Part shown: piece after piece, positions 16,873 to 39,674 of the stretch
How positions within the stretch are numbered: position 1 is the stretch's first letter
How the letters are laid out: each line of letters starts with the position of its first letter
Assembly: GCA_016220005.1 (NCBI GenBank)
Contig: JACRIV010000014.1
Span: 695-64,694, forward strand
From: Deltaproteobacteria bacterium
GTDB lineage: Bacteria; Desulfobacterota; Deferrimicrobia; Deferrimicrobiales; Deferrimicrobiaceae
Direction: 5' to 3'
Length of the DNA: 64,000 bases
Notes under the pieces: model-generated
What the model was told of the DNA's origin: nothing
The model's database searches: none
The model's input: only the letters and a program-made list of their open reading frames with translations
Made by a program: the position numbers and the translations under genes

Positions 16873-17217
16873 ATGAAGAAGTTCGCAACTTTCCTGGCGA
16901 TCGTCGCGGCGGTACTGTTCTCGGCCGGGCTGGTCATCAGCGCGGAGGCTCCGGAAAAGATCACCATCAAGTTCGTCCAGAAGACCAGGCCTCCGGTGGA
17001 GTTCCCCCACAAGGCCCACATCGCGAGGGCGAAGAACTGTCAGGAGTGCCACCACAAGAACGAGGCCGGCAAAGAGGAGAAGTGCTCCAACTGCCACAAG
17101 GCCAAGACGGAAGGCAAGGTGGTCGAGTTCAAGGAGGCCATGCACACCAAGTGCAAGGACTGCCACAAGAAACACAACGGCCCGACCAAGTGTGACGACT
17201 GCCACAAGAAGAAGTAA
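16873..17217 (+). CDS. periplasmic tetrahaem cytochrome c3-family protein
   Basis: Signal peptide. Four CxxCH motifs (CQECH, CSNCH, CKDCH, CDDCH) in about 90 mature residues. Confidence 0.85.
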   Translation: MKKFATFLAIVAAVLFSAGLVISAEAPEKITIKFVQKTRPPVEFPHKAHIARAKNCQECHHKNEAGKEEKCSNCHKAKTEGKVVEFKEAMHTKCKDCHKKHNGPTKCDDCHKKK

Positions 17218-17251
17218 ACGCTTTGCGAAAGGGATCACGGGAAAGACGGGA

Positions 17252-17283
17252 AAGGGCGGGAACCCCCCGCCCTTTCGTATTTA
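17252..17283 (+). terminator. rho-independent terminator
   Basis: AGGGCGGG-aacc-CCCGCCCT hairpin followed by TTCGTATTT. Confidence 0.6.
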
Positions 17284-17350
17284 GATTGACTACCTGTCCT
17301 CCAATATAGTATACAGTATACGTTTATCCATCATTCGAAGGTGAATCCCC

Positions 17351-18730
17351 ATGGCGGACGATAAGCGCAGTCAATCCCCGATGGACAAAGTGTGGAATCT
17401 CTTCACCTCCCTGAAGCTCGCCATCACCCTGATCATCATCATGGCCGTCGCCTCCATCTTCGGGACGGTCATCGAGCAGAACCAGCCGATCGAAAAGTAC
17501 CGGCAGTTCTACAGCGACGCGACCATCAGGATGCTCGACGCCCTGAACCTCTTCGACATGTACCATTCCTGGTGGTTCCTCCTCCTGCTCGTGCTGTTCA
17601 CCGTGAACCTTTCGTGCTGCACACTCGACCGGCTGCCGCGGGTCGTGAAGGTCGTCCGGAACCCGAAGACGAGACTCGACGACGGTCTCGAGAAGACGCT
17701 CCCCCTGGTGGACCGGTGGAAGAAGAAAGGATCCCTGCAGGCCTGGGCCGAGAAATACGCGGAAGTCGTAGGGGGTGCGGTAGGGAAACCCCTCGTGACG
17801 CAGAACAGCGAGACGCTGCACCTCTATGCCGAAAGAGGCGTCGTCTCCCGCTTCGGCGTCTACGTGACCCATCTCTCCATCATTATTATTTTCATCGGGG
17901 CGATCATCGGCAACGTGTTCGGCTTCAAGGGATACGCCAACATCGTGGAGGGGCAGTCCGTGCGGTCGATCCCGACGCGGGGAGGCTCCCGGCCCGTCGA
18001 CCTGGGGTTCGAGGTGCGGTGCAACCGGTTCGCCGTCAGCTTCTACACGGACCAGTTCGGTAACCCGACGCAGCAACCAAAGGAATACGCCTCCGACCTG
18101 AGCGTCATCGAGAACGGGCGGGAAGTGCTCCGCAAGAAGATCGTCGTCAATGACCCCCTGCAGTACAAGGGGGTCTGGTTTTACCAGTCGAGCTACGGCC
18201 CGGCCGGCGGAGCCTCCGCCCGCGTCAGGGTCAGCAGCGCGAACGGAGGCCCGGTGGCGGATCTTTCGTTCCATGCGGGCCAGCAGGTGGAGATCCCGGG
18301 GTACGGGACCATCACCGGCGTGGATTACCAGCAGGACTACCGGGGGTTCGGCCCCGCCCTTCTGGTGGTCCTTAAGAAACCCGGCGGGCAGGCGACGGAG
18401 TTCTGGCTGCTGCAGGGGCGGCCCGATTCCGACCGGCAGAGACAGGATCCGTACTTTCTCTCCTTCGGGGGCCTGAGCCAGGCCTACTACACCGGTCTCC
18501 AGGTCGCCAGGGACCCCGGCGTGAACGTGGTATGGCTGGGATGCGCCCTCATGGTCCTCGGCATCATCATCGCGTTCTTCATGTCCCATCAGCGCGTATG
18601 GGTCCGCCTGACGCCTGCCGCCGACGGCCGCGTGGAGGTCGTCCTCGCCGGTTCGGCGTCCCGAAACAGGCTTGCTTTCGAAAGGAAATTTGAGAAAATA
18701 CAGGACGATTTGAAGGCGCTCGCGGTTTGA
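17351..18730 (+). CDS. resB: cytochrome c biogenesis protein ResB/Ccs1 (System II)
   Basis: N-terminal TM helices, a large periplasmic domain and a C-terminal TM with the conserved W-rich end. Sits immediately upstream of ccsA. Confidence 0.8.
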   Translation: MADDKRSQSPMDKVWNLFTSLKLAITLIIIMAVASIFGTVIEQNQPIEKYRQFYSDATIRMLDALNLFDMYHSWWFLLLLVLFTVNLSCCTLDRLPRVVKVVRNPKTRLDDGLEKTLPLVDRWKKKGSLQAWAEKYAEVVGGAVGKPLVTQNSETLHLYAERGVVSRFGVYVTHLSIIIIFIGAIIGNVFGFKGYANIVEGQSVRSIPTRGGSRPVDLGFEVRCNRFAVSFYTDQFGNPTQQPKEYASDLSVIENGREVLRKKIVVNDPLQYKGVWFYQSSYGPAGGASARVRVSSANGGPVADLSFHAGQQVEIPGYGTITGVDYQQDYRGFGPALLVVLKKPGGQATEFWLLQGRPDSDRQRQDPYFLSFGGLSQAYYTGLQVARDPGVNVVWLGCALMVLGIIIAFFMSHQRVWVRLTPAADGRVEVVLAGSASRNRLAFERKFEKIQDDLKALAV

Positions 18731-18776: not shown

Positions 18777-19616
18777 ATGATCAATGTGCGTCTTTTCGAC
18801 TTGACTACCCTCTTGTTCGGCGTGGCCTCGGTGAACTACGTGGCCGCCCTCTACGGGAAGAGAGACACTCTCGCCCGCATCGGCACCTGGATCTGCGTGG
18901 CCGCGGCGGTCGTCTCGACCGCCGCTCTCGGCGTCCGGTGGGCCGAGTCCTACCGGATGGGGATCGGGCGGATCCCGGTCACGAACCTCTACGAGTCGCT
19001 CGTGTTCTTCGCGTGGGCGGTCAACCTCTTCTATCTCGTCGTGGAGTGGAAGTACAAGAACCGCACCTTCGGCGCCTTCGTCATGCCCATCGCCTTCCTG
19101 ACCATGCTGTTCGCCTTCACGAACGAGAGCAGCATCCAGCCGCTCGTGCCCGCCCTCCAGTCCTACTGGCTCCACGCCCACGTGATCACCTGCTTCATCG
19201 GGTACGCGGCCTTCGCCGTGTCTGCCGGCGTGGCGGCGATGTACCTGCTCAAGGCCAGGCGCGAGGAGTCCAAGACCCCGGGCGGGGTGGTCGGCCTCTT
19301 CCCCTCCAGCAAGGCGCTCGACGACCTGGTCTACAAGGCGATCATCTGGGGGTTCCCGTTCCTGACCGCCGGGATCATCACGGGGGCGGCTTGGGCGAAC
19401 TACGCATGGGGGACGTACTGGTCGTGGGACCCCAAGGAGACCTGGTCGCTCATCGTCTGGCTCGTGTACGCGGCGTTCCTTCACGCCCGGATCACCCGCG
19501 GCTGGCACGGCAAGCGGGCCGCGATCCTGTCGATCGCCGGCTTCCTGGCGACGGTGATGTGTTACCTCGGGGTCAACCTGGTGCTCTCCGGGCTGCATTC
19601 CTACGGCGGCTCGTAA
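18777..19616 (+). CDS. ccsA: cytochrome c-type biogenesis protein CcsA/ResC (haem export/lyase, System II)
   Basis: Multi-TM protein with the WWD-type Trp-rich motif AAWANYAWGTYWSWDPKETWS and conserved His residues. Confidence 0.85.
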   Translation: MINVRLFDLTTLLFGVASVNYVAALYGKRDTLARIGTWICVAAAVVSTAALGVRWAESYRMGIGRIPVTNLYESLVFFAWAVNLFYLVVEWKYKNRTFGAFVMPIAFLTMLFAFTNESSIQPLVPALQSYWLHAHVITCFIGYAAFAVSAGVAAMYLLKARREESKTPGGVVGLFPSSKALDDLVYKAIIWGFPFLTAGIITGAAWANYAWGTYWSWDPKETWSLIVWLVYAAFLHARITRGWHGKRAAILSIAGFLATVMCYLGVNLVLSGLHSYGGS

Positions 19617-19670: not shown

Positions 19671-20969
19671 ATGCGAAAGTCTGTCGGTTCCATCGGGGTG
19701 GCCGTACTGGTACTCGGGATTTCGGGTTTTCTCCGCGGTGAATCCCTTGCGGCGGATGCCTGCGTGACGGCGGAATGTCACGCGACGATGGGAAAAGCCG
19801 CCTTCGTGCATGGCCCCGTCGGGGTGATGCAATGCGCCGTGTGCCACCTGGAGGCGAAGAAGGGGCACCCGACGAAGAAGGGACCGGACTTCAAGCTGGC
19901 GGCGACAGGCAAGGCCCTCTGCGAGAAGTGCCACCAGCCGGTGGACAGGTTCGAGTACAAGCATACCCCCGTGAAGAAGGGGGAGTGCCTCGGCTGCCAC
20001 GACCCACACCAGTCTTCCGCGGCCAAACAGCTGAAGAAGGCCAAGACGTCGGAGCTGTGCCACACCTGCCACAAGAACACGCAGCAGGCGAAGAAGTTCC
20101 TCCACGGCCCCGTGGCCACCGGCGACTGCAACGTATGCCACAACCCCCACTCCTCCCCGAATCCCAAGCAGCTCGTCGCGCGGGGTAACGACGCCTGTTT
20201 CCTCTGCCACGAGGACCGCAAGGCCGAGTTCACCCGGAAGTACCCGCACAAGCCGGCCCAGGAGTCGTGCCTGAAATGCCACGACCCCCACAATGCGGAC
20301 CATCCCTTCATGCTGGCGAGCGAGGGGACAGGGCTTTGCCTCGGCTGCCACAAGAAGATGGAGGAGCACCTAAAGACCGCGGCCGTCAAGCACGGGGCCC
20401 TCCAGAAGGGGACGTGCACCACCTGCCACACCCCTCATTCGTCCGACTACCCGAGGCAGTTGAAGACGCACACCAAGGACATCTGCTACACCTGCCACAA
20501 GGATATGGGCGCCAAGGTCCGCGCGGCGAAGAGACTGCACGGTCCCGTCCAGCAGAACGACTGCTACGCATGCCACGATCCCCACGGGAGCAGGAACCCG
20601 TTGATCCTCAAGAAATACTTCCCGTCGGAGTTCTACAAGCCGTACGCGACGGAGAATTACGCGATGTGCTTCGACTGCCACAACAAGGACATCGCGCTGG
20701 ACAAGATCACGACGAAGCTTACGAACTTCCGCAACGGCGACACGAACATGCATTTCCTCCACGTGAACAAGGAGAAGGGGCGCTCCTGCAAGGCGTGCCA
20801 CGAAGTCCACGCAGGGAACCAGGACAAGCACATCCGCAAGGAAGTGCCGTTCGGCAAGGCATGGATGCTGCCCGTCACCTACACGAAAACCCAGAACGGG
20901 GGCACCTGCGTCGTCGGCTGCCACAAGCCGAAGACCTACGACCGCGTCAGCCCCGTGAAGTACGAATAG
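19671..20969 (+). CDS. multihaem cytochrome c with at least 13 CxxCH sites; repeated c7-like modules
   Basis: Signal peptide. 13 canonical CxxCH plus one CX4CH and one CX3CH site. Recurrent H-G-P-V...C..CH.PH spacing as in polymeric c7-domain cytochromes. Confidence 0.85.
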   Translation: MRKSVGSIGVAVLVLGISGFLRGESLAADACVTAECHATMGKAAFVHGPVGVMQCAVCHLEAKKGHPTKKGPDFKLAATGKALCEKCHQPVDRFEYKHTPVKKGECLGCHDPHQSSAAKQLKKAKTSELCHTCHKNTQQAKKFLHGPVATGDCNVCHNPHSSPNPKQLVARGNDACFLCHEDRKAEFTRKYPHKPAQESCLKCHDPHNADHPFMLASEGTGLCLGCHKKMEEHLKTAAVKHGALQKGTCTTCHTPHSSDYPRQLKTHTKDICYTCHKDMGAKVRAAKRLHGPVQQNDCYACHDPHGSRNPLILKKYFPSEFYKPYATENYAMCFDCHNKDIALDKITTKLTNFRNGDTNMHFLHVNKEKGRSCKACHEVHAGNQDKHIRKEVPFGKAWMLPVTYTKTQNGGTCVVGCHKPKTYDRVSPVKYE

Positions 20970-20979: not shown

Positions 20980-21990
20980 ATGAGCAGGTCCCGTCGTCGC
21001 GTCCCGTTGTTTGTATTCACCTTCCTCGCGGCGGTGTGTTTCTCGACGGTCCCGGGGACAGGGTCGGCGTTCCGGAACGTCAAGGAAGGCGCCCCGGCGA
21101 TCCCCTTCACCCTCAAGGACTTCGAGGGGAAGGATTTCGAGTTCAAGCCCGACTCGGGCAGGGTCACGATCCTGTCGTTCGTGAAGCTCGCGCAGGACCG
21201 GTCGAAGGACCAGCTCAGAGATCTCGTAGCCTTGCAGGGCGAGCTCGGGCCCAAGGGGGTGGACTTCCTCATCGTCTCGAGCTATACGGACACGCCCGAG
21301 GACGCCAAGAAGGTCGCCGCGGAGATGAACGTCAAGTTCCCGATCCTCCTGGACAAGGACCAGAGGGTCTACGGGGACTACGGGCTGTTCATCCTCCCCT
21401 CCACGGGCATCGTCGGGAAGGACGGGAAGTTCGCCTTCGAGCACTCCAGCCACGGGCGCGACTTCAAGGACGTGGTGGGGGGGAAAGCCAAGGTGCTCGC
21501 CGGGCTGATGACGGAAGAGGAGTACAAGAAGCTGGTCACGCCGGTCGAAGCGGTCCGGAAGAGCAAGGAGGAGAACGAAGCCGAGCGCTTGCTGGCTCTC
21601 GGGCGGACGCTGTTCAAGCGCGGCATGCCCGACAAGGCGGCCGATAAGTTCGCCAAGGCGGTGGAGCTCGACCCGAAGAACCCGGGGGGGCGCATCGCCT
21701 ACGGAGAGTCCCTGGTGGCGTTGAAGAAGTACGACGAGGCGCTCGTCCAGTTTCAGAAGGCGAAAGAGCTTTCTCCCGCGAGCAAGGATGCGCAGTTGGG
21801 CATCGGGACCGTGCATTTGGAGAAGGGCGAGCACGACAAGGCGATCCGGGAGATCTCCGAGGCGGCGATGCTCAACCCCAAGCCCGAGAAGGCGAATTTC
21901 TGGCTCGGGGTCGCCTACGAGAAAAAGGGAGATCTCCCGAATGCGGTGAAGTACTACCGAAAGGCCGTCGAGAAGCTCATCAAGGAGTAG
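20980..21990 (+). CDS. Cys-less thioredoxin-fold (TlpA/redoxin-like) domain fused to TPR repeats
   Basis: The N-terminal half aligns with the TlpA fold (bacterial thiol-disulfide oxidoreductase), but the WCxxC position reads SFVKLAQDRS with no cysteine. The C-terminal half carries TPR-like repeats. Confidence 0.6.
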   Translation: MSRSRRRVPLFVFTFLAAVCFSTVPGTGSAFRNVKEGAPAIPFTLKDFEGKDFEFKPDSGRVTILSFVKLAQDRSKDQLRDLVALQGELGPKGVDFLIVSSYTDTPEDAKKVAAEMNVKFPILLDKDQRVYGDYGLFILPSTGIVGKDGKFAFEHSSHGRDFKDVVGGKAKVLAGLMTEEEYKKLVTPVEAVRKSKEENEAERLLALGRTLFKRGMPDKAADKFAKAVELDPKNPGGRIAYGESLVALKKYDEALVQFQKAKELSPASKDAQLGIGTVHLEKGEHDKAIREISEAAMLNPKPEKANFWLGVAYEKKGDLPNAVKYYRKAVEKLIKE

Positions 21991-22007: not shown

Positions 22008-22727
22008 ATGGCGGCGATCCGTCCGAGATCCCGGTTCTTCCTGGTCTTCCTGGCCGTCGCGGCGGGGGGGATTCTCCTCCCCGCTTTTCCCGTATCCGGT
22101 GATCCCGGCAAGTCCCCCCTGGCGGTCCTTGCCCCGGGCGATGGCGCCCTGGTGTCGGCAGGGCGTGTTCTCGTCATCGGGAGAACGGCCGGGGAAGGGA
22201 TCGTGCGGGTGGAGATCGACGTGAACGGCAAGGGGAAGCAGTCCGTCCCGGTCGCCGGCGGGGGGTTTTCGGCTTCGGTCCCCATTGCCGCCGGCAGGAA
22301 CGTCATGCGGGTGAGCGCAGGGAAGGCGTCGGTCACGACCATTGTCTCCGCGGCGGCGAACCTCTCCGCATCGGGCAAGGGGGCATACGTCTACCACGAG
22401 GGGGTGGAGAAGTGCGCCGAATGCCACGGAGCGGGGAGGAAGGGATATGCCGTCGCTTCCCCGAAAGATTCCCTCTGCTACAGGTGCCACGACCGGGTGG
22501 ACGGAAAGAAGCATCTGCACGGCCCGATGGGGAGCGGAGACTGCACGGCGTGCCACGATCCGCACGGTTCGTCCCACAAGTCGCTGACGGTGGCGCGGCC
22601 CGACTCGCTGTGCGTCACGTGCCACGATCAGAGAAGTTCCGAAGGCCATATGAATAAGTCCAGGGGGAAGGCGTGCACGTCTTGTCACGACCCGCACTCG
22701 TCGGACCGATCATTCCTCCAGAAGTAG
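22008..22727 (+). CDS. pentahaem cytochrome c with an N-terminal beta-rich domain
   Basis: Signal peptide and five CxxCH motifs (CAECH, CYRCH, CTACH, CVTCH, CTSCH). Confidence 0.8.
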   Translation: MAAIRPRSRFFLVFLAVAAGGILLPAFPVSGDPGKSPLAVLAPGDGALVSAGRVLVIGRTAGEGIVRVEIDVNGKGKQSVPVAGGGFSASVPIAAGRNVMRVSAGKASVTTIVSAAANLSASGKGAYVYHEGVEKCAECHGAGRKGYAVASPKDSLCYRCHDRVDGKKHLHGPMGSGDCTACHDPHGSSHKSLTVARPDSLCVTCHDQRSSEGHMNKSRGKACTSCHDPHSSDRSFLQK

Positions 22728-22758
22728 TTGTCCGGGGGGAATGACTTTCAGGGGGGAG

Positions 22759-23892
22759 ATGATGGGAAGGAAGGGGAAGGCGGCGAAGGCCCTTGCCTCG
22801 CTTCTGCTTTTTGTCATCGGGTTGTATGCCGCCCCGAAGGCCGCCGCCGCGTTCAAGAACGTCCAGGGGGGGATGGAGGCGCCCGCTTTTCGCCTGAAGG
22901 ACGCGGCAGGCAACGAGGTTTCCCTCGACGCGTTCAGGAAGGAGAAGGCCGTGCTCGTCGTCTTCTGGGCGACGTGGAGCGGCCGGTCGCTTGCGGAGCT
23001 CAAGGACGTCCAGAAACTGCTCGCGGAGATGGAAGCGAAAGGCCTGAAGGCGGTCGCCGTCAACGTGGAGCACGAGCACATGACGGACGAGGACTTGCGG
23101 GCAATCAAGGATAAGGTCGGGGAGCTCAAGCTGACATACCCCGTCGTGTTCGACTCCGGCCTGGAGACGTTCCGCAGCTACGGAGTGGTTGCGGTCCCCT
23201 CCACGGCCATCCTGGGCGAGGGAGGGGTGGTCCGCAGCGCGGTCAACGGCTACCCGACCTTCGTCCTCGCCGAGATCAGGGAACAGGTGGAGGTGCTGCT
23301 GGGCATAAGGAAACCGGAGACCGCCGTGGCGGCGAAGGCGGACACGGCGCATAAGCCGACCCGGCAGGCGCTCCTGAACTACAACCTCGGGCGCAGGCTT
23401 TACGCTTCCGGAATGGCCGACAAGGCCGAGCCGAAGCTCAAGACCGCGGTCGGCGCGGACCCGAACTGGGCGGCTCCCCACGTGCTCCTGGGGGACATCT
23501 ATCTCGCGAAGGCGAGGAAGGACCCGAAGAAGGCCGAGGAGGCGAAGAAGGAGTTCGAGGCCGCCATTGCCGCGGACAAGGGAAACGTGGTGGCGAGGAC
23601 CGGTCTGGCCCGGGTATACTGGAACGCGGGCGCGGCCGCCGACGCCGAGAAGGAAGTCGGCGAGGCGCTTTCGATCAGCGGCTCGTATCCTCCGGCCCTG
23701 ATGCTCAAGGCCGCTGTTCTGGCCAGGAAGGGAAATCTCCCCGAGGCGGACAACCTGATCCGCAGCGCACTCGAGCTTTCCGGGAGGGACCCCGAGGCGC
23801 ATGCCCTGGCAGGACGCGTCTACGAGGAGGCGGGGGAGCTTCAGAAAGCCGCGGGAATGTACCGGAAGGCGTGGCAATTGATCGGGGAGTGA
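22759..23892 (+). CDS. Cys-less TlpA-like thioredoxin-fold domain (WATWSGRS in place of WCxxC) fused to TPR repeats; paralogue of 20980-21990
   Basis: VLVVFWATWSGRSLAELKDV matches the TlpA active-site context with both Cys replaced by Ser. C-terminal TPR repeats. Start chosen at an internal ATG with GGGGGGAGA upstream (ORF track 22741). Confidence 0.6.
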   Translation: MMGRKGKAAKALASLLLFVIGLYAAPKAAAAFKNVQGGMEAPAFRLKDAAGNEVSLDAFRKEKAVLVVFWATWSGRSLAELKDVQKLLAEMEAKGLKAVAVNVEHEHMTDEDLRAIKDKVGELKLTYPVVFDSGLETFRSYGVVAVPSTAILGEGGVVRSAVNGYPTFVLAEIREQVEVLLGIRKPETAVAAKADTAHKPTRQALLNYNLGRRLYASGMADKAEPKLKTAVGADPNWAAPHVLLGDIYLAKARKDPKKAEEAKKEFEAAIAADKGNVVARTGLARVYWNAGAAADAEKEVGEALSISGSYPPALMLKAAVLARKGNLPEADNLIRSALELSGRDPEAHALAGRVYEEAGELQKAAGMYRKAWQLIGE

Positions 23893-23912: not shown

Positions 23913-24029
23913 ATGAGGACACGATTCATCGCGTTTCTGATTACCGCCGCGGCGGCCGGCACAGTGCTCGTGTACGGGATATACCGCGAGGAGATCGGCG
24001 AAGTCCTGTTCAACGCCGCGATGCTTTGA
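23913..24029 (+). CDS. possible 38-aa single-TM small protein (MRTRFIAFLITAAAAGTVLVYGIYREEIGEVLFNAAML)
   Basis: An intact ATG-to-TGA ORF with a hydrophobic core in the 165-nt gap before the NapH-like gene. Weak RBS. Below the ORF-track size cutoff. Confidence 0.25.
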   Translation: MRTRFIAFLITAAAAGTVLVYGIYREEIGEVLFNAAML

Positions 24030-28971: not shown

Positions 28972-29100
28972 CGGCGATTCACTTCACGCATGCTCAACTG
29001 GGCATTTTCCCTCAAGGCGGGTGATATGGCCGCACGGTAAAAACGAGGCTAAGGCCTCTATTAAAAAAGGTATTCCAAGAAGATAAGGGAAACGCGAATG

Positions 29101-29117: not shown

Positions 29118-29184
29118 CAATTACCGGAGGGGGCAGATGGAAAGGGAAACGTGTGGCAGTTCACGCAGTGCAGGGGGTATGAAG

Positions 29185-33136: not shown

Positions 33137-33178
33137 GGTGCCGGCCCCTGGGATTTAAGGGGCCGGCACCTGCTTCTT
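33137..33178 (+). terminator. rho-independent terminator
   Basis: 13-bp perfect stem GGTGCCGGCCCCT/AGGGGCCGGCACC followed by TGCTTCTT. Confidence 0.7.
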
Positions 33179-33851: not shown

Positions 33852-35570
33852 ATGTTTTTCCGCGATGATTCAAAGACCCGAGCCTTGTGTATCCCGTTGC
33901 TGCTCTGGCTTATGTGCGCCGGCTGCCGTGACGGAGAGCGGAACCCCCCGCAGCAGGGCGGTGCGAAAACCGCCGCGGAGAACGCCGCGGCGGGGAGAAC
34001 GGCCGACCTTTCGCCGCAGACCGCGGCGCGGGTGGGCGGTCTCGACGTGACGTTGAGCGACCTGAGAGGGGAGGCGGCCGACAGCAAATACGACGCGTAC
34101 AAGGCGGGATCCCCCGAGATGTCGGCCTTGAGAGCCCTGGACAAGCTGATCACGGACCGCTTGCTTTACCAGGAAGCCGCCGAGAAGAAGGCGTACGAAA
34201 ACTCCCCGATCGAACGGGAGTTGCGGGTCACGCAGGAAGTCTGGCTGGCCTCCCTCTATGTCAACGAGGTACTGCGCAGGCAGGTCAAGGTGAGCGAAGA
34301 GGAGATGAAGCCCTTCCTTCCCGACAAGTGGGACTCGGTGGAGATCTCCATGCTGGTGGCCGACGACGAGGCCGCCGCGAGGAAAGCGGTCTCCGCCGTC
34401 CGGGAGGGGAAGTCCACCTTCGAGGAGGAGGCGAAGAAGGGAGCGGGCACCATCGCCCCGAAAAAGGGACGCGTCGGCTGGATCCTGCGGAACACGGCGT
34501 TCTTCACGGACAAACGCCATGTCGACAGGATCTTCTCCCTGAAGCCGGGGGAGATGACGGACCCTTTCCTTGGGCCGCTGGGATGGACGGTGGTCCGGGT
34601 CGACAATCGCCGCGGGCTCTCCAAATTGGAGATCGAAGAGATCAAGAATACATCGCGGGAGGGCCTGTACAACAGGAAGTTCGACGAGCTCCTGAACCGG
34701 GACGCCGCCCTGCACAAGTGGACGCAGTACGCCGACAATACCGTTGCCAAGTCGCCTGGCGCAGTCGTCCTGGAGGGGCTGGGCCGGGTCTACACCAAGG
34801 CGGACTTCGACACGTTCGTCAAGATCCACCTCCAGTCGGGACACCTGATCCAGCAGCCCGAGACTCCCAGGGAGATCCTCCGCAACTTCGCGCGGCACAT
34901 GTCGTGGGCGGAGGAGGCGGGGCGGGCAGGGCACGACAGGCGCACCGAATTCATCGAGAGAATGAGGAGTTTCCGGATCGCGAGGACCGCGCAGGCCGTG
35001 GAGGCGAAGATCAAGGAATCCGTGAAACCCGATAAGGATGAGCTTCTCGCTTACTACAAGAAGAACAAGAACCGGTTCCGGGAGGAGGATTCCCTCTGGC
35101 TCCTGATCCTTTCCGCCGGCGGCCAGTCCCAGGCCCGCGAGTTCCGGAAGCGGGCGGAGGCCGGCGAGGACTTCAAGTCGCTCATCCGGCAGGCGGGGAG
35201 CGACGCGCCCGACGCCCGCGGGGCGGAGGAAGTCGGCCCGCTGACCCGGAAGATGTTTCCCCCGGACCTGGCCGCCATCCTCTTCTCCCTCCGCGAAGGC
35301 GACGTCTCCCAGGTCATCCCGCTGGCGGGGCAATACATCGTGGCCAAATGCACGCGGTTCAAGGGGGGTAAGACGAAGAGCTTCGAAGCCGTTCGAAAGG
35401 AAGTCCTTAACGCCTACCGGAACGACAACTACATGCCCTTGCTCGAAAAAAAGGTGGCGGAGCTGAAGGCGCGCTACCCCGTCCGGATGAACGAAAAGGC
35501 TGTCGAGATCGTCGCAAACGAGATCAGGGAGGAGGCGGCGAAACGTGGAGGCAAGCCGAAATACCACTGA
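33852..35570 (+). CDS. SurA/PpiD-like periplasmic chaperone with two parvulin (PpiC) domains; lipoprotein
   Basis: Lipobox LMCAGC. SurA-N-like region. Parvulin signatures GRVGWILRN...PFLGPLGWTVVRV and GQYIVAKCTRF. Confidence 0.65.
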   Translation: MFFRDDSKTRALCIPLLLWLMCAGCRDGERNPPQQGGAKTAAENAAAGRTADLSPQTAARVGGLDVTLSDLRGEAADSKYDAYKAGSPEMSALRALDKLITDRLLYQEAAEKKAYENSPIERELRVTQEVWLASLYVNEVLRRQVKVSEEEMKPFLPDKWDSVEISMLVADDEAAARKAVSAVREGKSTFEEEAKKGAGTIAPKKGRVGWILRNTAFFTDKRHVDRIFSLKPGEMTDPFLGPLGWTVVRVDNRRGLSKLEIEEIKNTSREGLYNRKFDELLNRDAALHKWTQYADNTVAKSPGAVVLEGLGRVYTKADFDTFVKIHLQSGHLIQQPETPREILRNFARHMSWAEEAGRAGHDRRTEFIERMRSFRIARTAQAVEAKIKESVKPDKDELLAYYKKNKNRFREEDSLWLLILSAGGQSQAREFRKRAEAGEDFKSLIRQAGSDAPDARGAEEVGPLTRKMFPPDLAAILFSLREGDVSQVIPLAGQYIVAKCTRFKGGKTKSFEAVRKEVLNAYRNDNYMPLLEKKVAELKARYPVRMNEKAVEIVANEIREEAAKRGGKPKYH

Positions 35571-35580
35571 GCTGGACCGC

Positions 35581-36165
35581 ATGACGGGTGGGGGGGCCAG
35601 AAAGGGAATGCCGTGCGGGGCGGCGGTGATTGCCATGGCCGCCGCCTTGGCGCTGACGGCCGGCCTGATGGGGCCGCCCCGGGCGTGCGCCACCTCCCCC
35701 GAGAAGGACGGCAAGATGGTGGGGAAGGCTTCACCGCGGTTCACGGCCGTTGATCTTGACGGCAAGACGAGAAGTTTCGAAGAGGTGAAGAACGGTTCGC
35801 ACGCCGTGGTGGTCAACTTCTGGGGGTTGCGCTGCTCGGCCTGCATCCAGGAGATGCCTTACCTGGACGACATTTACAGGAAATTCGCCAAGGAAGGCCT
35901 GTTCGTCTTCGGGGTGAACGTGGACGGGATGGACAGGGACGCCATCCGGAAGAAGATGAAACAGATGAGTCTCGCCCCCAGCTACTGCATCGTCGAGGAC
36001 CCGGATATGAAGCTCGCGGACCTTTTCAACATGAGGGCCGCCCCCCTGACCTACGTCATCGATGCAAAGGGCATCATACGGTTCCAGCACGAAGGGTTCG
36101 AGGAAGGCGACGAGAAGGAGCTGGAGAAGGCGGTCGACTCCGTCCTCCGCGGCAAGGCGGATTGA
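35581..36165 (+). CDS. TlpA family thiol-disulfide oxidoreductase (CSAC)
   Basis: Signal/anchor peptide. AVVVNFWGLRCSACIQEMPYL. Start chosen at the ATG at 35581 (ORF track 35545). Confidence 0.75.
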   Translation: MTGGGARKGMPCGAAVIAMAAALALTAGLMGPPRACATSPEKDGKMVGKASPRFTAVDLDGKTRSFEEVKNGSHAVVVNFWGLRCSACIQEMPYLDDIYRKFAKEGLFVFGVNVDGMDRDAIRKKMKQMSLAPSYCIVEDPDMKLADLFNMRAAPLTYVIDAKGIIRFQHEGFEEGDEKELEKAVDSVLRGKAD

Positions 36166-36202: not shown

Positions 36203-37357
36203 ATGGGAAAGATGACGCCAGGTGAAAACCGGGCACGCCGCGGTGCGAATGTTCTCCTGAAGTCGTTCGTCCTGGCGGTTTTCCTGACCGCCGTGATCGC
36301 CGGGACCCGGTCGTTTTCCGGGGAAACCGCCGGAAGCCCGTACCAGGGTTCCGAGAAGTGCGCCCCCTGCCATCAAATCCAGTACAAGGGGTGGGTGAAG
36401 ACCTTCCACAGCACGGTGGTGCAGGACGCCAGGAAGAACCCTTCCGCCATCATGGCGGACATGAACGCCCCCGACCTGCCCTTCAAGAAGGAAGACATCG
36501 ACCTCACGATCGGCGGCCACTGGGACCAGCGGTACCTCACCAGGATCGGGGACGATTACTACATCCTGCCGAGGCTATGGTCGGTCCAGAGCGGGAAATG
36601 GCGCCCCTACAGCACCTATGGGTGGCAGAAGCGCCCCTACTCGAAGTATTGCGTCGGGTGCCACTCCGTCGGCTTCGACCCGAAGACCAGGAGGTTCAAG
36701 GAGCATTCCGTGGGCTGCGAATCGTGTCACGGCCCCGGGGCGGAACACGTCGCCAATCCCGCCAGGGAGAACATCGTGAACCCCAAACGGCTCCCCGAGG
36801 ACCGGTCGGAGGATATCTGCGCCTCCTGCCACGTCAGGGGGAAGGACATCTCGGGCGAATACTTCTTCCCCATCGGGTGGAAGCCGGGGAATGACCTCGC
36901 GAAATTCCTCGTTCCCATCGAGAAAGACGAGGGAGAGAGCGACCACAACGCCATCCACCGTCTCTGGGACAAGTGGCGGGCGGACCGGGAGGCCCAGGCA
37001 AGGTCCCGTTGCGAGGTGTGCGGCATCCATCAGAACGTGAAGCCCCAGGGGCAGCAGATAAGCGTGGACGCGATCTGCATGAGCTGCCACGAATACGGGG
37101 AAAAGATGTCGAGCCACACGCACCACAAGGCCGACACGAAGATCGGCTGCGTGGACTGCCACCGGCAGAAGAACCCGGAATCGAATGAAAACAAGGAGAA
37201 CAACGTCCACTCTTACGGATACTTCCTGATCCACCCGCAGGGGTGCTGGGACAAGGAGATCTACAAGCAGTGCGGGAGCTGTCATTCGGGAAAGACAGGG
37301 CAGTGGGCATATGATATCTTTAAAAGTTGGGAAAAAACGGTGATCGTGGACCATTAA
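36203..37357 (+). CDS. heptahaem cytochrome c (c554-like N-terminal signature)
   Basis: Signal peptide. Seven CxxCH motifs plus one CxxCG. Begins EKCAPCHQIQYKGWVKTFH. Start ATG at 36203 after GCAGGAGAG. Confidence 0.8.
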   Translation: MGKMTPGENRARRGANVLLKSFVLAVFLTAVIAGTRSFSGETAGSPYQGSEKCAPCHQIQYKGWVKTFHSTVVQDARKNPSAIMADMNAPDLPFKKEDIDLTIGGHWDQRYLTRIGDDYYILPRLWSVQSGKWRPYSTYGWQKRPYSKYCVGCHSVGFDPKTRRFKEHSVGCESCHGPGAEHVANPARENIVNPKRLPEDRSEDICASCHVRGKDISGEYFFPIGWKPGNDLAKFLVPIEKDEGESDHNAIHRLWDKWRADREAQARSRCEVCGIHQNVKPQGQQISVDAICMSCHEYGEKMSSHTHHKADTKIGCVDCHRQKNPESNENKENNVHSYGYFLIHPQGCWDKEIYKQCGSCHSGKTGQWAYDIFKSWEKTVIVDH

Positions 37358-37359
37358 CC

Positions 37360-37935
37360 ATGACCAACGGGGGCGCGGTGATGAGGGGTGCGTCGCAGCT
37401 GTTCGTGCTTTTCCTTCTGATCGGTATGGTTCCGACGGGAACTCTCCCTGCGTTCGCGCAGGACACGGCGATGCGGCTGAAGATCGGCGAGAAGGCGCCC
37501 GACTTCAAGCTGAAGGACGTGATGACGGGCAAGGTGGTCAGCCTTCACGAGTTCACGGGCAAGAAGGTGGTGATGCTCGAGTTCTGGGCCACCTGGTGCG
37601 ACATCTGCAAGCGGGAGATGCCCAACCTCGTCAAGCTCCACACCGGGTGGAAAGACAGGGGCTTCGAGCTCCTCTCGATCGTCCTCCCCTCCGGCAACGT
37701 CGACGACATCCGCAAGATCGTGAAGGATAAAAGGATCACCTACGCCGTCCTCCTGGACGCCGACCTTTCCGTGGCGACGAAATCCTTCGGGCTTGCCGGC
37801 CCCATCCCGCTGAAGGTGGTCATCGACCACAAGGGCGTCATCCGCTACACGCACGTGGGCGACTATCCCCCGGGGGAGGATGAGCTGCCCTTCGTCCTCG
37901 AAGACCTCATCAAGGAAATGGGGAAGGGGAAGTGA
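37360..37935 (+). CDS. TlpA family thiol-disulfide oxidoreductase (WCDIC)
   Basis: VVMLEFWATWCDICKREMPNL. Signal peptide. Start chosen at the ATG at 37360, just after the cytochrome stop. Confidence 0.75.
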   Translation: MTNGGAVMRGASQLFVLFLLIGMVPTGTLPAFAQDTAMRLKIGEKAPDFKLKDVMTGKVVSLHEFTGKKVVMLEFWATWCDICKREMPNLVKLHTGWKDRGFELLSIVLPSGNVDDIRKIVKDKRITYAVLLDADLSVATKSFGLAGPIPLKVVIDHKGVIRYTHVGDYPPGEDELPFVLEDLIKEMGKGK

Positions 37936-38471
37936 GCCGCTGCGCCGTGCGCGTGACACCCTTCCGTCGGCGGGGGGTGGCCCTTCTTCTCTCCCTCTGC
38001 TTCCTGGGCATCGCCGCGACCGCCCTTCCCGCGGACAAGACCGTCGAGGTGGGGCATGCGGTCCCGGACTTCTCCCTGTCCGGCCTGGAGGGGCCGAAGG
38101 TGTCTTTCAGGAAGGACATCCTGGGCAAGGCGCCCCTCACCCTCCTGTTCTTCATGACCACCGCGTGCAGCGCGTGCTACGAGGAGCTCCAGGAGATCAA
38201 CGAGTTCGTCGGGGAAAACCCCGGCAAGGTCGACGTCTGGTGCATCGCGGTGGACCTGCGGGGGGCGCAGACCGTGGGTCCGTTCCGGCAGGCGAACAAG
38301 TTCCGGGTGAAGTACCTGATCGACCCGAAGTTCTCTCTCCCCAGGACATTTGGTTTCAACTATACCCCGTCCCTCGCCTTTGTCGATTCGAAGGGCGTGC
38401 TGCTTCACAAGAAGGGCGGCTACACGCCCAATGAACGCCTCTCCGACCTGATCCGGACGTTCCTCAAGTAA
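37932..38471 (+). CDS. thioredoxin-like protein (CSAC)
   Basis: GTG start overlapping the upstream stop (GTGA). LTLLFFMTTACSACYEEL. Signal peptide. Confidence 0.65.
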   Translation: MSRCAVRVTPFRRRGVALLLSLCFLGIAATALPADKTVEVGHAVPDFSLSGLEGPKVSFRKDILGKAPLTLLFFMTTACSACYEELQEINEFVGENPGKVDVWCIAVDLRGAQTVGPFRQANKFRVKYLIDPKFSLPRTFGFNYTPSLAFVDSKGVLLHKKGGYTPNERLSDLIRTFLK

Positions 38472-38480
38472 AGGATCTCG

Positions 38481-39674
38481 ATGCCTGCCTGGAAAAGGGT
38501 TTACCTGCTTGTCGCAATCGGCCTGCTCCTCCCGCCGGGCGCGTGGGGGTTCGGCCCCGGCGCGAAGGGATACGCGGGCTCCGAGAAGTGCCGGAAGTGC
38601 CACGAGGAGATCTACATCCAGTGGAAGCGGACCCCGCACGCCAACATGCTTCGGGACGCGAAGAAGAACCCGGACGCAATGGCGGCGAAGGATTTCTCCG
38701 GCGTTCCCTTCAAGAAAGAGGACGTCTGGTGGACGATCGGGAGCCACTGGATCCAGAAGTACCTGACTTTCATCGACAATGACTACTATGTTCTCCCGAA
38801 GTACTGGAACCTCGTCAACAACGACTGGGAGCCGTACTCGATCTTCAATTGGAGGGAGCGGCCCTACACGATCTACTGCGACGGGTGCCATACTACCGGG
38901 TTCGATCCCGAGACGAAGTCGTTCCACGAACCGTCCATCGGCTGCGAGGCGTGTCACGGCCCCGGCGAGAAGCACGCCGCGACCGGCGCGGCGGCGGACA
39001 TCGTGAACCCCGAGAAGCTCTCGAAGGAGCGGTGGGACATGGTGTGCGAGGCGTGCCACACGGACGGGAAGGACACGAAGGCCGGCGGCCAGTTCCCATT
39101 CCCCGCGCGTTACCGGCCCGGGGAGGACCTCACGAAATATTTCACCGATTTCTTCGCTCCCAAGCCCAAGTCGAAGAAATGGTACTGGGGGACGATGGAC
39201 TACAAGGAACGGCACCGGATGTTCCTGTTCTGGCAGTCCAAGTTCTATTCGACCGCGCGCGCGTGCGACGTGTGCGGATTCGATCGGGGGATCACGGTCA
39301 AGGATGAGCGATACATGAGCCGGGACGAGTATTGCGGCACGTGCCACGGGAAGATCTACAAGTTCGCCTCGGTCCACTCGCACCACGATTCGAGGACGGT
39401 CCGCTGCATCGACTGCCACACGCCGCAGGGGACCTCCGGGGGGCAGCGGTACAGCATCCACGACCACAAGTTCGACTTCTCGGGGCCGGAGCTTCCGTGC
39501 GTCGAGTGCCACGAGGAGAAGGATATCCGAGGGAAAAAGGCGGAAAACCACGACTTCCACTTTTCCCGTGTCAAGACGCCTGGAAGCCTGACCCTGGAGC
39601 AGGCGTGCGCCAGGTGCCATCCGGACAAGGGGATCCCCGAGATCCTGAAGGACTGGAAGCCCGGAGCGAAGTAG
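38481..39674 (+). CDS. octahaem cytochrome c, paralogue of 36203-37357
   Basis: Signal peptide. Eight CxxCH motifs plus one CxxCG. Begins EKCRKCHEEIYIQWKRTPH. Colinear with its paralogue. Confidence 0.8.
   Translation: MPAWKRVYLLVAIGLLLPPGAWGFGPGAKGYAGSEKCRKCHEEIYIQWKRTPHANMLRDAKKNPDAMAAKDFSGVPFKKEDVWWTIGSHWIQKYLTFIDNDYYVLPKYWNLVNNDWEPYSIFNWRERPYTIYCDGCHTTGFDPETKSFHEPSIGCEACHGPGEKHAATGAAADIVNPEKLSKERWDMVCEACHTDGKDTKAGGQFPFPARYRPGEDLTKYFTDFFAPKPKSKKWYWGTMDYKERHRMFLFWQSKFYSTARACDVCGFDRGITVKDERYMSRDEYCGTCHGKIYKFASVHSHHDSRTVRCIDCHTPQGTSGGQRYSIHDHKFDFSGPELPCVECHEEKDIRGKKAENHDFHFSRVKTPGSLTLEQACARCHPDKGIPEILKDWKPGAK

Follow-up and report, generated by a model that had tools for sequence, protein, structure and literature searches.

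The 64,000-nt stretch of DNA that we analysed (the window) comes from an uncultured bacterium that probably respires iron. It contains a genuine gene cluster, which encodes seven multihaem cytochromes together with their maturation and regulatory proteins. Most of the parts belong to known classes, and a few accessory proteins stand out as unusual. All genes listed for the locus by an earlier note on this DNA were found on the + strand, at the same or nearby coordinates, and profile searches with Pfam and NCBIfam confirmed the domain calls. The locus comprises the following features:

15029-16846, + strand: GltD-like NAD(P)H flavo-iron-sulfur oxidoreductase (Pfam Fer4_20, Pyr_redox_2; NCBIfam PRK12771, 372 bits)
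16873-17217, + strand: tetrahaem cytochrome c3, signal peptide (4 CXXCH; PF02085, E 6e-14)
17351-18730, + strand: ResB (CcsB), System II cytochrome c synthase subunit (PF05140, 359 bits; four predicted TM segments)
18777-19616, + strand: CcsA, System II cytochrome c synthase subunit (TIGR03144, 291 bits, cut-off 187.6; PF01578)
19671-20969, + strand: periplasmic MtrA/DmsE-like cytochrome (13 CXXCH; ~80% identity in relatives)
20980-21990, + strand: TrxTPR1, Cys-less ResA-like thioredoxin fold with TPR repeats (Pfam AhpC-TSA, TPR)
22008-22727, + strand: pentahaem cytochrome, N-terminal beta-sandwich domain (5 CXXCH; Paired_CXXCH_1; Glucodextran_B-like N-domain)
22741-23892, + strand: TrxTPR2, Cys-less ResA-like thioredoxin fold with TPR repeats (AhpC-TSA, TPR)
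23916-24029, + strand: single-TM 37-aa ORF with C-terminus YREEIGEV[L/M]FNAAML (same position in L002 and L008)
24058-24948, + strand: NapH/MauN-like membrane iron-sulfur protein (PF12801 Fer4_5)
24945-25889, + strand: octahaem cytochrome, N-terminal beta-sandwich domain (8 CXXCH; orthologue alignment)
25919-27415, + strand: sensor histidine kinase, periplasmic PAS-like domain with one CXXCH (PF21563, HAMP, HisKA, HATPase_c)
27520-28971, + strand: NtrC-type sigma-54-dependent response regulator (Response_reg, Sigma54_activat, HTH_8)
29000-29011, no strand: degenerate palindrome copy GGGCATTTTCCC (alignment of four intergenic regions)
29102-29116, + strand: sigma-54 (-24/-12) promoter TGGCACCGAAAATGC, TGGCAC-N5-ATGC
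29179-30771, + strand: exported NHL six-bladed beta-propeller, Ig/Fn3-like N-terminal domains (PF01436, PF17170)
30877-33099, + strand: 14-haem cytochrome, 740 aa, signal peptide (14 CXXCH)
33137-33170, + strand: G+C-rich hairpin with a 13-bp stem, directly 3' of the 14-haem gene
33207-33713, + strand: TlpA/ResA-like thiol-disulfide oxidoreductase 1 (TlpA1), motif C[A/G]AC
33852-35570, + strand: parvulin-type PPIase, two rotamase domains (PF13145, PF00639)
35545-36165, + strand: TlpA/ResA-like oxidoreductase 2 (TlpA2), motif CS[A/S]C; start uncertain (35545, 35581 or 35608)
36203-37357, + strand: OcwA-family cytochrome c7 (7 CXXCH and an invariant CEVCG; start corrected to ~36203)
37381-37935, + strand: TlpA/ResA-like oxidoreductase 3 (TlpA3), invariant WATWCDICKREMPNL; ORF opens at 37327 (ResA subfamily model, 89 bits)
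37932-38471, + strand: TlpA/ResA-like oxidoreductase 4 (TlpA4), motif CS[A/P]C
38481-39674, + strand: OcwA-family cytochrome c8b (8 CXXCH and an invariant CDVCG at the position of OcwA haem 5)
39678-41585, + strand: polytopic membrane protein, C-terminal TPR, no family match

The conserved oxidoreductase gene marks the left limit of the locus, while the right limit lies at 41585 or beyond; the membrane protein at that end is syntenic with the module in L002 and L003, and glycosyltransferases follow. The locus is chromosomal, adjoins serA–purA–tRNA, consists of two parts, and is conserved in related MAGs, which are probably Deferrimicrobiota/MBNT15. The left part, from the oxidoreductase to the response regulator, shows 55–90% identity across relatives (compared beside serA-purA in L002, L003, L008, L012, L015, L016 and L017). 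The right part, 3' of the sigma-54 promoter, is a variable module with identities down to 22-48%, in which gene order and the number of haems vary; every version has an NHL beta-propeller, a PPIase and large cytochromes. This combination is a recognised core of loci linked to extracellular electron transfer (PMC5539420, PMC5815863, PMC9900912). Furthermore, the c7-TlpA3-c8b block and the block of the 13-haem cytochrome and TrxTPR both recur in the distant locus L037.

The earlier note was right that cytochromes, a System II synthase, thiol-redox proteins and a sigma-54 two-component system are encoded side by side, and this arrangement is conserved. The word 'island' is not apt in the sense of horizontal transfer, because housekeeping genes lie on both sides and the G+C content of the locus equals that of its flanks. 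That the integration is tighter than usually described is overstated, since the sir and mcc/nrf clusters are precedents for maturation genes and a regulator integrated with a cytochrome gene (PMC6976685).

Seven c-type cytochromes bearing signal peptides contain 59 CXXCH motifs in total (a motif count), and the other examined ORFs have none, apart from one in the periplasmic domain of the kinase. This agrees with the 'at least 59 haems' of the earlier note, to which the 13-haem protein adds two variant motifs, CX4CH (residue 31) and CX3CH (residue 413), kept in all orthologues. The same protein scored 139 bits against TIGR03508 (cut-off 192), and aligned over 333 aa (E 5e-15) with PDB 6r2q_A, which we take to be MtrA of the MtrCAB complex, although the PDB file names the chain otherwise. 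The c3 cytochrome likewise stayed below the cut-off of the TmcA model (70 against 114 bits). Directly 5' of the c3 gene, also in L008, L012, L015 and L017 (70-77% identity), lies the oxidoreductase gene, whose product starts with CxxC...CxxC followed by two hydrophobic helices. The ResB/CcsA pair was recovered as anticipated, with CcsA being 76-90% identical in relatives.

The NapH-like protein, likewise borne out by its Fer4_5 domain, has CX3CP-type motifs and two 4Fe-4S motifs, and is 75-87% identical in relatives; against TIGR02163 it reached 65 bits, below the cut-off of 213. Its stop codon overlaps the start of the octahaem gene by 4 nt, which indicates translational coupling. The octahaem gene starts at ~24945 (TTG) rather than at the long-ORF start of 24348. 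It is plausible that the NapH-like protein feeds quinol electrons into the locus. In E. coli, the iron-sulfur clusters of NapH face the cytoplasm. Because of this orientation, and because no NapG-like partner is present, electron transfer from the NapH-like protein to the octahaem protein is conjectural. The conserved 37-aa ORF just upstream, for which no family match was found, was absent from the earlier gene list.

The kinase matched PF21563 at 29.3 bits (cut-off 27). Its sensor domain is homologous to the c-type haem sensor domain of Geobacter GSU0935 (PDB 3b42, E 8e-5) with the CXXCH aligned, and this motif is kept in all orthologues. Judged by this homology, the kinase is a predicted haem-based sensor, which contains haem and does not sense it. 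The 'haem-sensing sigma-54 two-component system' of the earlier note thus stands as regards the kinase/regulator pair and the promoter, but not as regards the signal. The sigma-54 site was the top-scoring site of the window and the sole intergenic one, and occurs at the same position in L002, L003 and L017, hence in four loci counting the window. The longest NHL ORF includes this site, so the true start of the NHL gene is either 29137 or 29179. About 100 bp 5' of the promoter lies a palindrome, in full GGGGGAT(A/T)TCCCCC, of which L003 and L017 have near-perfect copies and the window an imperfect one; it is a candidate activator-binding site.

Downstream of the promoter, the NHL protein matched NHL domains in the PDB (E 1e-21). 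The 14-haem cytochrome, probably the main product of the sigma-54 operon, is a compositional outlier (8.4% charged residues, 52% S/T/G/A/N). All 14 motifs are invariant in its homologues, and its family counts 390 representatives at E<=1e-30; its predicted structure has a pLDDT of 29. The hairpin behind its gene, probably an attenuator or mRNA stabiliser, is found with differing sequence at the same position in L002, L003 and L017. The PPIase is possibly a lipoprotein (..CAG|C). Calling it SurA-like is right only loosely: it has two parvulin domains, but scored 28 bits against the SurA model (cut-off 394).

The Pfam and NCBIfam matches together with motif reading confirmed four TlpA-type proteins of the AhpC-TSA/Redoxin kind, with the CXXC motifs CAAC, CSAC, CDIC and CSAC, and two Cys-less TlpA-TPR proteins. 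The CXXC position is occupied by Q[D/E]RS in TrxTPR1, where ~100 clusters at 64-82% identity are likewise without Cys in the motif, and by S[G/S]RS in TrxTPR2. The best PDB match of TrxTPR2 was ResA (4nmu, E 1e-11), with FWATWSGRS aligned on FWGTWCKPC. Distant homologues of these ResA-like–TPR proteins are also Cys-less. Each of the four TlpA paralogues forms an orthologous lineage apart from the others and has its own CXXC motif. TlpA1 and TlpA2 diverge fast, as do the NHL protein, the 14-haem cytochrome and the PPIase; the divergence of TlpA3 and TlpA4 is slow, as is that of c7 and c8b. TlpA divergence therefore tracks that of the neighbours, which fits partner-specific roles. A dedicated TlpA and a TPR apocytochrome chaperone have tested precedents in SirH and SirG (PMC6976685).

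On balance, we are inclined to read the locus as a conserved two-operon respiratory system of an uncultured, cytochrome-rich lineage, in which a constant periplasmic-haem core is combined with a lineage-variable, sigma-54-driven module of surface or terminal-reductase cytochromes. Operon 1 would be the core, comprising a membrane-anchored NAD(P)H oxidoreductase, the System II synthase ResB/CcsA, and four periplasmic cytochromes (c3, the MtrA-like protein with 13-15 haem sites, the 5-haem and the 8-haem protein). The two redox-dead ResA-like–TPR proteins may act as chaperones that hold apocytochromes for the synthase, and we infer that the NapH-like protein links the membrane or quinone pool to the periplasmic haem chain. 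The c-type haem domain of the kinase would read the redox or ligand state of the periplasm and, via the NtrC-type regulator and the sigma-54 promoter, switch on operon 2. This second operon, the variable module for cytochromes made in the periplasm, would supply the NHL beta-propeller, the parvulin PPIase, a 14-haem cytochrome that is abundant, carries few charges and probably sits on the cell surface, and two OcwA-family cytochromes serving as terminal reductases. Its four non-redundant TlpA/ResA-like reductases may hold the cysteines of the proteins co-expressed beside them, whether haem-binding or in CxxC motifs, in the reduced state. Gene content, conservation, promoter and homologies are observed here, and from them we infer which way electrons flow, what lies at the surface, the role of the chaperones and the substrate of each TlpA. 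We counted against this explanation that no porin, secretion system or lipoprotein cytochrome was found here and no CcdA/DsbD in the window to reduce the TlpAs; further, that some 8-haem homologues lack TlpA neighbours, that a NapG-like partner is missing, and that the 14-haem model is of such low pLDDT.

Alternatively, the right half might encode a system for multi-electron reduction, in the periplasm, of a soluble substrate (such as nitrite, hydroxylamine or an oxyanion of sulfur or a metal) with the architecture of the mcc/sir/nrf clusters, which we consider unlikely. The OcwA-family proteins would then be catalytic subunits, the PPIase, TlpAs and ResB/CcsA their dedicated maturation proteins, the NapH-like protein a quinol dehydrogenase, and the two-component system a substrate or redox regulator. 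Indeed, OcwA itself reduces nitrite and hydroxylamine (PMC6703420), and the paralogues c7 and c8b (38% identical to each other; c7 71-75% to its own orthologues) carry an invariant CxxC[G/E/S] in place of CXXCH at the fifth haem position, which is where the NrfA-type catalytic haem would sit. They share the invariant Arg/His/Lys/Tyr of the family, with H245 aligned to the distal His-His motif of OcwA haem 2, and have an ordinary periplasmic-type composition. In other systems, unusual haem sites depend on lyases, thioredoxins and TPR chaperones of their own (SirEFGH, NrfEFG, NrfI, CcsA1; PMC6976685), and automated annotation labels some homologues as nitrite reductase. However, CXXCK is absent, the NrfA, MccA and HAO models stayed below threshold, and among relatives of solved structure the surface reductases OcwA and OmhA are much the closest. 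A soluble substrate also leaves the NHL protein and the low-charge 14-haem cytochrome at the head of the operon unexplained. Moreover, the core occurs in relatives whose sequenced variable module shows neither c7 nor c8b, so ResB/CcsA is not dedicated to these two.

Rather improbable is the model of the earlier note, an Mtr/Pcc-type periplasm-to-exterior conduit fed with quinol via the NapH-like protein, with a ResA-type reductase for each cytochrome. The MtrA/DmsE-like periplasmic cytochrome, the coupling of the NapH-like and octahaem genes, and the conserved, distinct TlpA lineages interleaved with cytochrome genes in the right half all fit it. Yet neither the locus nor the rest of the window encodes a beta-barrel porin or an MtrC/OmcB-type lipoprotein cytochrome, and hence a conduit is not shown. 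Only four catalytic TlpAs, all in the right half, face seven cytochromes; the four left-half cytochromes adjoin only redox-dead ResA-like proteins, and the 8-haem protein has two close homologues that occur singly, in TlpA-free neighbourhoods. CcdA/DsbD is likewise missing from the 64,000 nt, which leaves the maturation gene set incomplete. Both the conduit and the pairing of reductases with cytochromes are therefore supported only in part. It is more doubtful still that the AhpC-TSA-fold proteins are thiol peroxidases or provide general redox protection in the haem-rich periplasm of a facultative aerobe, rather than cytochrome-specific maturation. AhpC-TSA is their best Pfam family, TlpA3 has weak peroxiredoxin matches, JGI names some homologues 'peroxiredoxin', and oxygen respiration is predicted for the MBNT15 lineage (PMC9386147). 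Against this, the active sites are of thioredoxin type (WxxWCxxC, then a cis-Pro loop), the top NCBIfam and PDB matches are ResA, StoA, DsbE and TlpA, and two members cannot be peroxidases because they lack all cysteines. The linkage of their genes to cytochrome genes also holds across distant loci.

The forward strand from 16.8 to 39.7 kb is an unbroken series of open reading frames (ORFs) with high GC3. Seven of the encoded proteins combine a signal peptide with 4, 13, 5, 8, 14, 7 and 8 CXXCH motifs, respectively, which as a motif count bears out the total of at least 59 haems in the earlier note. The further translated ORFs contain no CXXCH, except for one in the sensor kinase. The parts list of that note was also right, as every class that it named was recovered by Pfam and NCBIfam. 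ResB/CcsB matched PF05140 (359 bits, cut-off 24.6) and CcsA matched the equivalog model TIGR03144 (291 bits, cut-off 187.6). Four proteins are of the AhpC-TSA/Redoxin type, with ResA, StoA, DsbE and TlpA as best named relatives (Pfam, NCBIfam), while two combine AhpC-TSA with TPR domains and lack CXXC (Pfam). The kinase is of the HAMP-HisKA type and the regulator is NtrC-type (Pfam, NCBIfam). Two starts were corrected: the 8-haem gene behind the NapH-like gene starts at ~24945, with a 4-nt overlap with the NapH-like stop, and the 7-haem gene at ~36203. The main features located in the window are:

15029–16846 (+), GltD-like oxidoreductase, with an N-terminal CxxC pair and two hydrophobic helices
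16873–17217 (+), c3 cytochrome
19671–20969 (+), 13-haem cytochrome
22008–22727 (+), 5-haem cytochrome
23916–24029 (+), small ORF with a single transmembrane (TM) segment
24945–25889 (+), 8-haem cytochrome behind the NapH-like gene
29098–30771 (+), ORF of the NHL protein, with a probable gene start at 29137 or 29179
30877–33099 (+), 14-haem cytochrome (c14)
36203–37357 (+), 7-haem cytochrome (c7)
38481–39674 (+), second 8-haem cytochrome (c8b)
39678–41585 (+), 635-aa polytopic membrane protein with C-terminal TPR

The small TM ORF was absent from the earlier list. It is conserved at a length of 37–38 aa (also at L002 2913–3029 and L008 12888–13055, in two related loci) and has the C-terminus YREEIGEV[L/M]FNAAML; a family search gave no match.

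The G+C content of the locus equals that of its flanks, and serA, purA, tRNA-Lys and tRNA-Glu lie immediately upstream, as they also do in the 290-kb contig of one relative. These shared neighbours and the flank-like G+C indicate a chromosomal locus, and we therefore rejected a mobile island acquired by horizontal transfer. The labels of close homologues (Candidatus Deferrimicrobiaceae and Thermodesulfobacteriota) point to the MBNT15/Deferrimicrobiota lineage. These bacteria are common in peat, groundwater and sediments, and their iron reduction has been predicted only from cytochrome abundance; the published MBNT15 genome analysis does not describe the locus (PMC9386147). Judging by its periplasmic-type exported proteins and by the signal peptides on the substrates of its System II synthase, the host appears to be diderm.

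Related loci were obtained from contig look-ups and a scan of species-representative genomes, and their genes were mapped onto the window proteins. The synteny check proposed in the earlier note came out positively: in seven loci (L002, L003, L008, L012, L015, L016 and L017) the left part is kept in order at 55–90% identity. This order is the GltD-like oxidoreductase, c3, resB, ccsA, 13-haem cytochrome, TrxTPR1, 5-haem cytochrome, TrxTPR2, the small TM ORF, NapH-like protein, 8-haem cytochrome, kinase and regulator, where TrxTPR1 and TrxTPR2 denote the two Cys-less ResA-like–TPR proteins. Only L012 lacks the kinase and regulator. The module that follows the regulator contains an NHL protein, a parvulin peptidyl-prolyl isomerase (PPIase) and large cytochromes in every case, and its arrangement differs between loci (TlpA1–4 are the four CXXC-containing TlpA/ResA-like proteins):

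Window, L002 and L003: NHL, 14-haem, TlpA1, PPIase, TlpA2, 7-haem, TlpA3, TlpA4, 8-haem, 635-aa membrane protein
L017: NHL, 13-haem, TlpA, PPIase
L008, L016 and L012: PPIase, NHL, followed where sequenced (L016 and L012) by an 8-haem and a 5-haem cytochrome

The proteins of the window-type module have diverged unevenly. Between the window and L002, identity is 48% for the NHL protein, 45% for c14, 52% for TlpA1, 30% for the PPIase, 39% for TlpA2 and 36% for the 635-aa membrane protein, and it is 71% for c7, 73% for TlpA3, 71% for TlpA4 and 75% for c8b. A constant core joined to an exchangeable, sigma-54-driven module is a new arrangement. If real, a constant sensing and maturation unit with such a module offers a concrete and testable picture of how electron-transfer proteins are deployed and diversified. 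At L012 9932–12596 the full conserved core is present, and the PPIase–NHL module comes directly after the octahaem gene, in the place of the missing kinase and regulator.

The module is preceded by a −24/−12 site, TGGCACCGAAAATGC (29102–29116), a GG-N10-GC element downstream of the enhancer-binding-protein gene. It is the best-scoring and the sole intergenic site in the window, and a search for a second intergenic sigma-54 site in the locus found none. A single match of this kind is not above chance (2.9 expected in the window), and the case is made by position and conservation: the elements TGGCACTGAAAATGC in L003, TGGCATTAAATATGC in L002 and TGGTACGAAACATGC in L017 occupy the same place. A palindrome, GGGGGAT(A/T)TCCCCC, lies about 100 bp upstream of the promoter; almost perfect in L003 and L017 and degenerate in the window and L002, it is a plausible candidate for the activator-binding site. 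Just 3' of the −12 element lies a conserved block, GGAGGGGGCAGATGG (window 29126–29170, L002 8185–8245, L003 4945–4960, L017 14175–14195), which may be a conserved element of the 5' UTR or else a very short leader complete with ribosome-binding site and start (ATG 29137). A further block, TCACGCAG[T/C]GCA, is common to the window and L002. In each of the four loci, a strong G+C-rich hairpin stands immediately behind the gene for the large cytochrome, with a sequence unrelated from locus to locus; its presence suggests that the transcript for the NHL protein and large cytochrome is the abundant product.

The kinase in front of this promoter had been called haem-sensing. Its periplasmic domain matches PF21563, the Geobacter "40H" sensor (29.3 bits, cut-off 27), and PDB 3b42 (E 8e-5) with the CXXCH in register, and this motif is retained in all orthologues. 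Read from this alignment, the kinase is a predicted haem-containing sensor and not a sensor of haem. The homologous haem-c PAS-like periplasmic domains of Geobacter GSU0935 and GSU0582 (PDB 3b42 and 3b47) belong to chemotaxis transducers, whereas the domain here sits on a HAMP-HisKA kinase that is paired with an NtrC-type regulator. Another pair of a HAMP-HisKA kinase and a sigma-54 response regulator is encoded upstream of the locus (6263–8428 and 8433–9806, + strand).

The left half is a System II synthase combined with periplasmic cytochromes. System II consists of ResB/CcsB, CcsA, ResA/CcsX and CcdA; here ResB and CcsA reach model thresholds, and ResA-like CXXC thioredoxins are encoded next to likely substrates. 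Compared to the standard system, the locus has four ResA-like paralogues and two Cys-less ResA-like–TPR fusions, and CcdA is missing from the window. The window ORFs scanned included neither a polytopic protein with paired PC motifs nor a DsbD-family match; a CcdA/DsbD gene may lie elsewhere in the genome. Some System II lyases are dedicated, among them Wolinella NrfI and CcsA1. The position of resB and ccsA by housekeeping genes and their high conservation suggest that they encode the general synthase of the genome rather than a dedicated one.

TlpA1–4 form four orthologous lineages with one motif each: C[A/G]AC in TlpA1, CS[A/S]C in TlpA2, CDIC inside the invariant WATWCDICKREMPNL in TlpA3, and CS[A/P]C in TlpA4. 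TlpA1–4 are thus old, non-redundant paralogues. Their sites are of the WxxWCxxC type, and their top NCBIfam match is ResA at 35–89 bits, in all four cases under the ResA subfamily cut-off of 170. L012, L017 and the distant locus L037 also have TlpA-like genes in their variable modules. The NHL-cytochrome clusters in loci of Myxococcales, Thermoanaerobaculia and Nitrospirota lack them. In L037, a block of c7-like, TlpA3-like and c8b-like genes recurs, besides a block of MtrA-like, TrxTPR and TrxTPR genes. The proposal that each cytochrome has its own reductase gains from the four orthologous lineages, but two c8b homologues (56–58% identity) stand alone, without TlpA neighbours. Obligate TlpA linkage of OcwA-family homologues was rejected, as two of three loci outside the lineage lack TlpA.

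The TPR fusions have the ResA fold (ResA 4nmu, E 1e-11, with FWATWSGRS aligned on FWGTWCKPC). In place of the cysteines, ~100 sequence clusters as well as distant homologues have Q[D/E]RS or S[G/S]RS. A redox-dead ResA pocket with a TPR domain, encoded beside ResB/CcsA and large apocytochrome genes, is most simply read as a candidate apocytochrome holdase. Dedicated proteins of both kinds, TPR chaperone and TlpA-like, have a tested precedent in Shewanella SirG and SirH (PMC6976685). Our literature search for a ResA–TPR fusion or a TPR chaperone of System II found no description; the Cys-less ResA-like–TPR family is new, as are the four conserved TlpA lineages.

A close comparison for this combination is with Shewanella sir (SirA, SirEFG and the TlpA-like SirH) and Wolinella mcc, where an octahaem-family cytochrome is likewise co-encoded with a maturation set (PMC6976685). 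The common set comprises a TlpA/ResA thioredoxin, a TPR apocytochrome chaperone, a haem lyase, an iron-sulfur/membrane quinol module and a regulator (PMC6976685). However, sir and mcc serve one catalytic cytochrome with an atypical CX12-15CH site, whereas seven cytochromes are encoded here; sir uses System I instead of a System II synthase; and the TPR domain is fused to a redox-dead ResA fold only here. Maturation genes and regulators beside a cytochrome gene are known from sir, mcc and nrf clusters, so that the integration, which the earlier note took as tighter than usually described, has precedents.

A core of NHL protein, PPIase and multihaem cytochromes has been recognised before in loci tied to extracellular electron transfer (PMC5539420, PMC5815863, PMC9900912), and the right half is one more variant of it. 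A core operon of NHL protein, PPIase and large cytochrome has been described for the SEEP-SRB1 partners of methane-oxidising archaea, Desulfuromonadales and Anaeromyxobacter (PMC5539420). The Desulfovibrio ferrophilus DFE_448-465 clusters are of the same type (PMC5815863), and the Uet cluster has a PPIase, UetB, and NHL proteins, UetH/I (PMC9900912). Common to these operons and our module are an exported six-bladed NHL protein, a parvulin PPIase and large signal-peptide cytochromes, and a porin is not an obligatory part. Our module departs from the published operons in its conserved sigma-54 promoter, placed under a haem-c sensor kinase, in the four TlpA-like genes and two OcwA-family cytochrome genes that are interspersed in it, and in its attachment to a constant core that carries a System II synthase. 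Compared by haem number, not homology, c14 has 14 haems versus 16 and 26 in the published operons.

The NHL protein is an exported six-bladed beta-propeller (PF01436 and PF17170; NHL domains in PDB at E 1e-21). Its PDB matches include SOQ1 and NHLRC2 (7djk, 7djj, 6g7w). In these two proteins, a thioredoxin-like domain is naturally fused to an NHL propeller, so that the pairing of TlpA and NHL genes here has a fused eukaryotic counterpart. The PPIase has two parvulin domains (PF13145 and PF00639) and occurs in every variable module examined. Its earlier description as SurA-like is weak, at 28 bits for the SurA model PRK10770 (cut-off 394); the protein is better described as a PpiD/PrsA-like parvulin. 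For c14, a sequence search of the PDB gave nothing meaningful, and an AlphaFold2 model from an 8-sequence alignment was unusable (pLDDT 29). A word-indexed search returned 13 homologues, but a full profile search found 390 representatives at E<=1e-30, many of them matching end to end, and we rejected the idea that c14 is rare; its relatives form a broad family of 700–900 aa. It is poor in charged residues (8.4%) and rich in S, T, G, A and N (together 52%), whereas all other proteins of the locus are 20–38% charged. This composition hints that c14 may be surface-exposed.

The cytochromes c7 and c8b are paralogues (38% identity) with the OcwA fold: their profile matches OcwA (6i5b) at E 1e-29, and a confident structure model (pLDDT 86) has structural matches. 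OcwA is a cell-surface terminal reductase of Thermincola; two of its haems, 2 and 5, are penta-coordinate and regarded as putative active sites, the latter being the counterpart of the NrfA catalytic haem (PMC6703420). OcwA of Thermincola potens and OmhA of Carboxydothermus ferrireducens (6qvm) are surface terminal reductases of Gram-positive iron reducers, while the host here appears diderm. The proteins are also shorter (397 aa for c8b and 384 aa for c7, versus 484–526 aa for OcwA), and the nine-CXXCH pattern of OcwA is reduced to eight in c8b and seven in c7. At the fifth of the nine motif positions, CXXCH in OcwA, the residue behind CxxC is always G, E or S in place of H, with both cysteines kept in 103 of 104 full-length homologues; c7 has lost one more motif. 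This CxxC[G/E/S] variant of the OcwA scaffold in an apparent diderm is new. The site may bind haem, form a disulfide or bind a metal. As for NrfA, which would have refuted the earlier proposal, neither the CXXCK catalytic haem motif nor a match to the NrfA model at threshold was found.

Taken jointly, the thiol-redox accessories might be a System II substrate-handling layer that is, as far as we could find, undescribed, although we consider this joint reading rather unlikely. TrxTPR1 and TrxTPR2 would then be the missing apocytochrome chaperones, as counterparts of CcmI, NrfG and SirG, and TlpA1–4 would be partner-specific. TlpA3 and TlpA4 would serve the CxxC[G/E/S] site. This site would bind a ninth haem, whose proximal ligand another part of the chain provides, or else have a redox or metal function where NrfA-type proteins have their catalytic haem. 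Both the Cys-less ResA-like–TPR fusions and the CxxC[G/E/S] cytochrome variant are defined, expressible and testable proteins, which bear on how System II handles very large multihaem substrates and on haem gain and loss in NrfA/OcwA/MccA scaffolds.

The earlier mechanistic reading found partial support: maturation, regulator and cytochrome genes are co-located, but conduit parts are absent from the window and the TlpA linkage is not obligate. An MtrA/DmsE-like periplasmic multihaem cytochrome is present, as in the Mtr/Pcc conduits (MtrCAB, OmaB-OmbB-OmcB). This 13-haem protein has an extra CX4CH and CX3CH in every orthologue, scores 139 bits against the DmsE-family model TIGR03508 (cut-off 192), and matches PDB 6r2q_A at E 5e-15 over 164 residues, a 333-aa chain that we take to be MtrA of the MtrCAB complex. 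However, Mtr/Pcc conduits also have a porin and an outer lipoprotein cytochrome, and the locus has neither. Pfam and NCBIfam found no outer-membrane beta-barrel porin among the locus and window ORFs. For a lipoprotein cytochrome of the MtrC/OmcB type, the cytochrome signal peptides contain no lipobox and the OmcA/MtrC models are far under cut-off. Hence, the conduit from periplasm to exterior was not borne out.

The polytopic NapH-like protein, a Fer4_5/NapH-like membrane protein (PF12801), has the CX3CP motifs CGTLCP and CRVVCP and two C-terminal 4Fe-4S motifs, CTRCGKCQKICP and CLRCLDCTRCP. It stays below the NapH family models (TIGR02163, 65 bits versus 213; PRK09477, 55 bits versus 234). 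The locus has no NapG-type periplasmic ferredoxin partner; instead, an octahaem cytochrome gene adjoins. This gene coupling suggests, but does not prove, an electron link from membrane to periplasm.

The 635-aa membrane protein follows the last cytochrome in three of three window-type loci, with glycosyltransferases next (41589–42623 in the window, L002 18677–22208 and L003 15205–18906 for the protein and following genes). It has no Pfam or NCBIfam match beyond a weak TPR. Two other loci with NHL-cytochrome modules, L006 and L009, are flanked by TMEM260/PMT-like GT-C proteins, but a glycosyltransferase of that type was rejected for the 635-aa protein, which has no BLASTP similarity to them. 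The flanking glycosyltransferases and GT-C proteins hint that secreted proteins may be glycosylated. At 46000–48000, G+C falls to 0.42, versus 0.58–0.68 elsewhere in the window. This stretch, possibly an O-antigen-like segment of horizontal origin, lies within a glycosyltransferase/sugar-modification region with GT2 genes, a C-methyltransferase, an NDP-sugar dehydratase and a 10-TM protein (47658–49175, − strand). Outside the locus (55329–55874, − strand), a fifth TlpA/ResA-like protein (CASC) is encoded near FG-GAP/ASPIC (56180–57703) and NosD-like beta-helix (57787–59202) genes.
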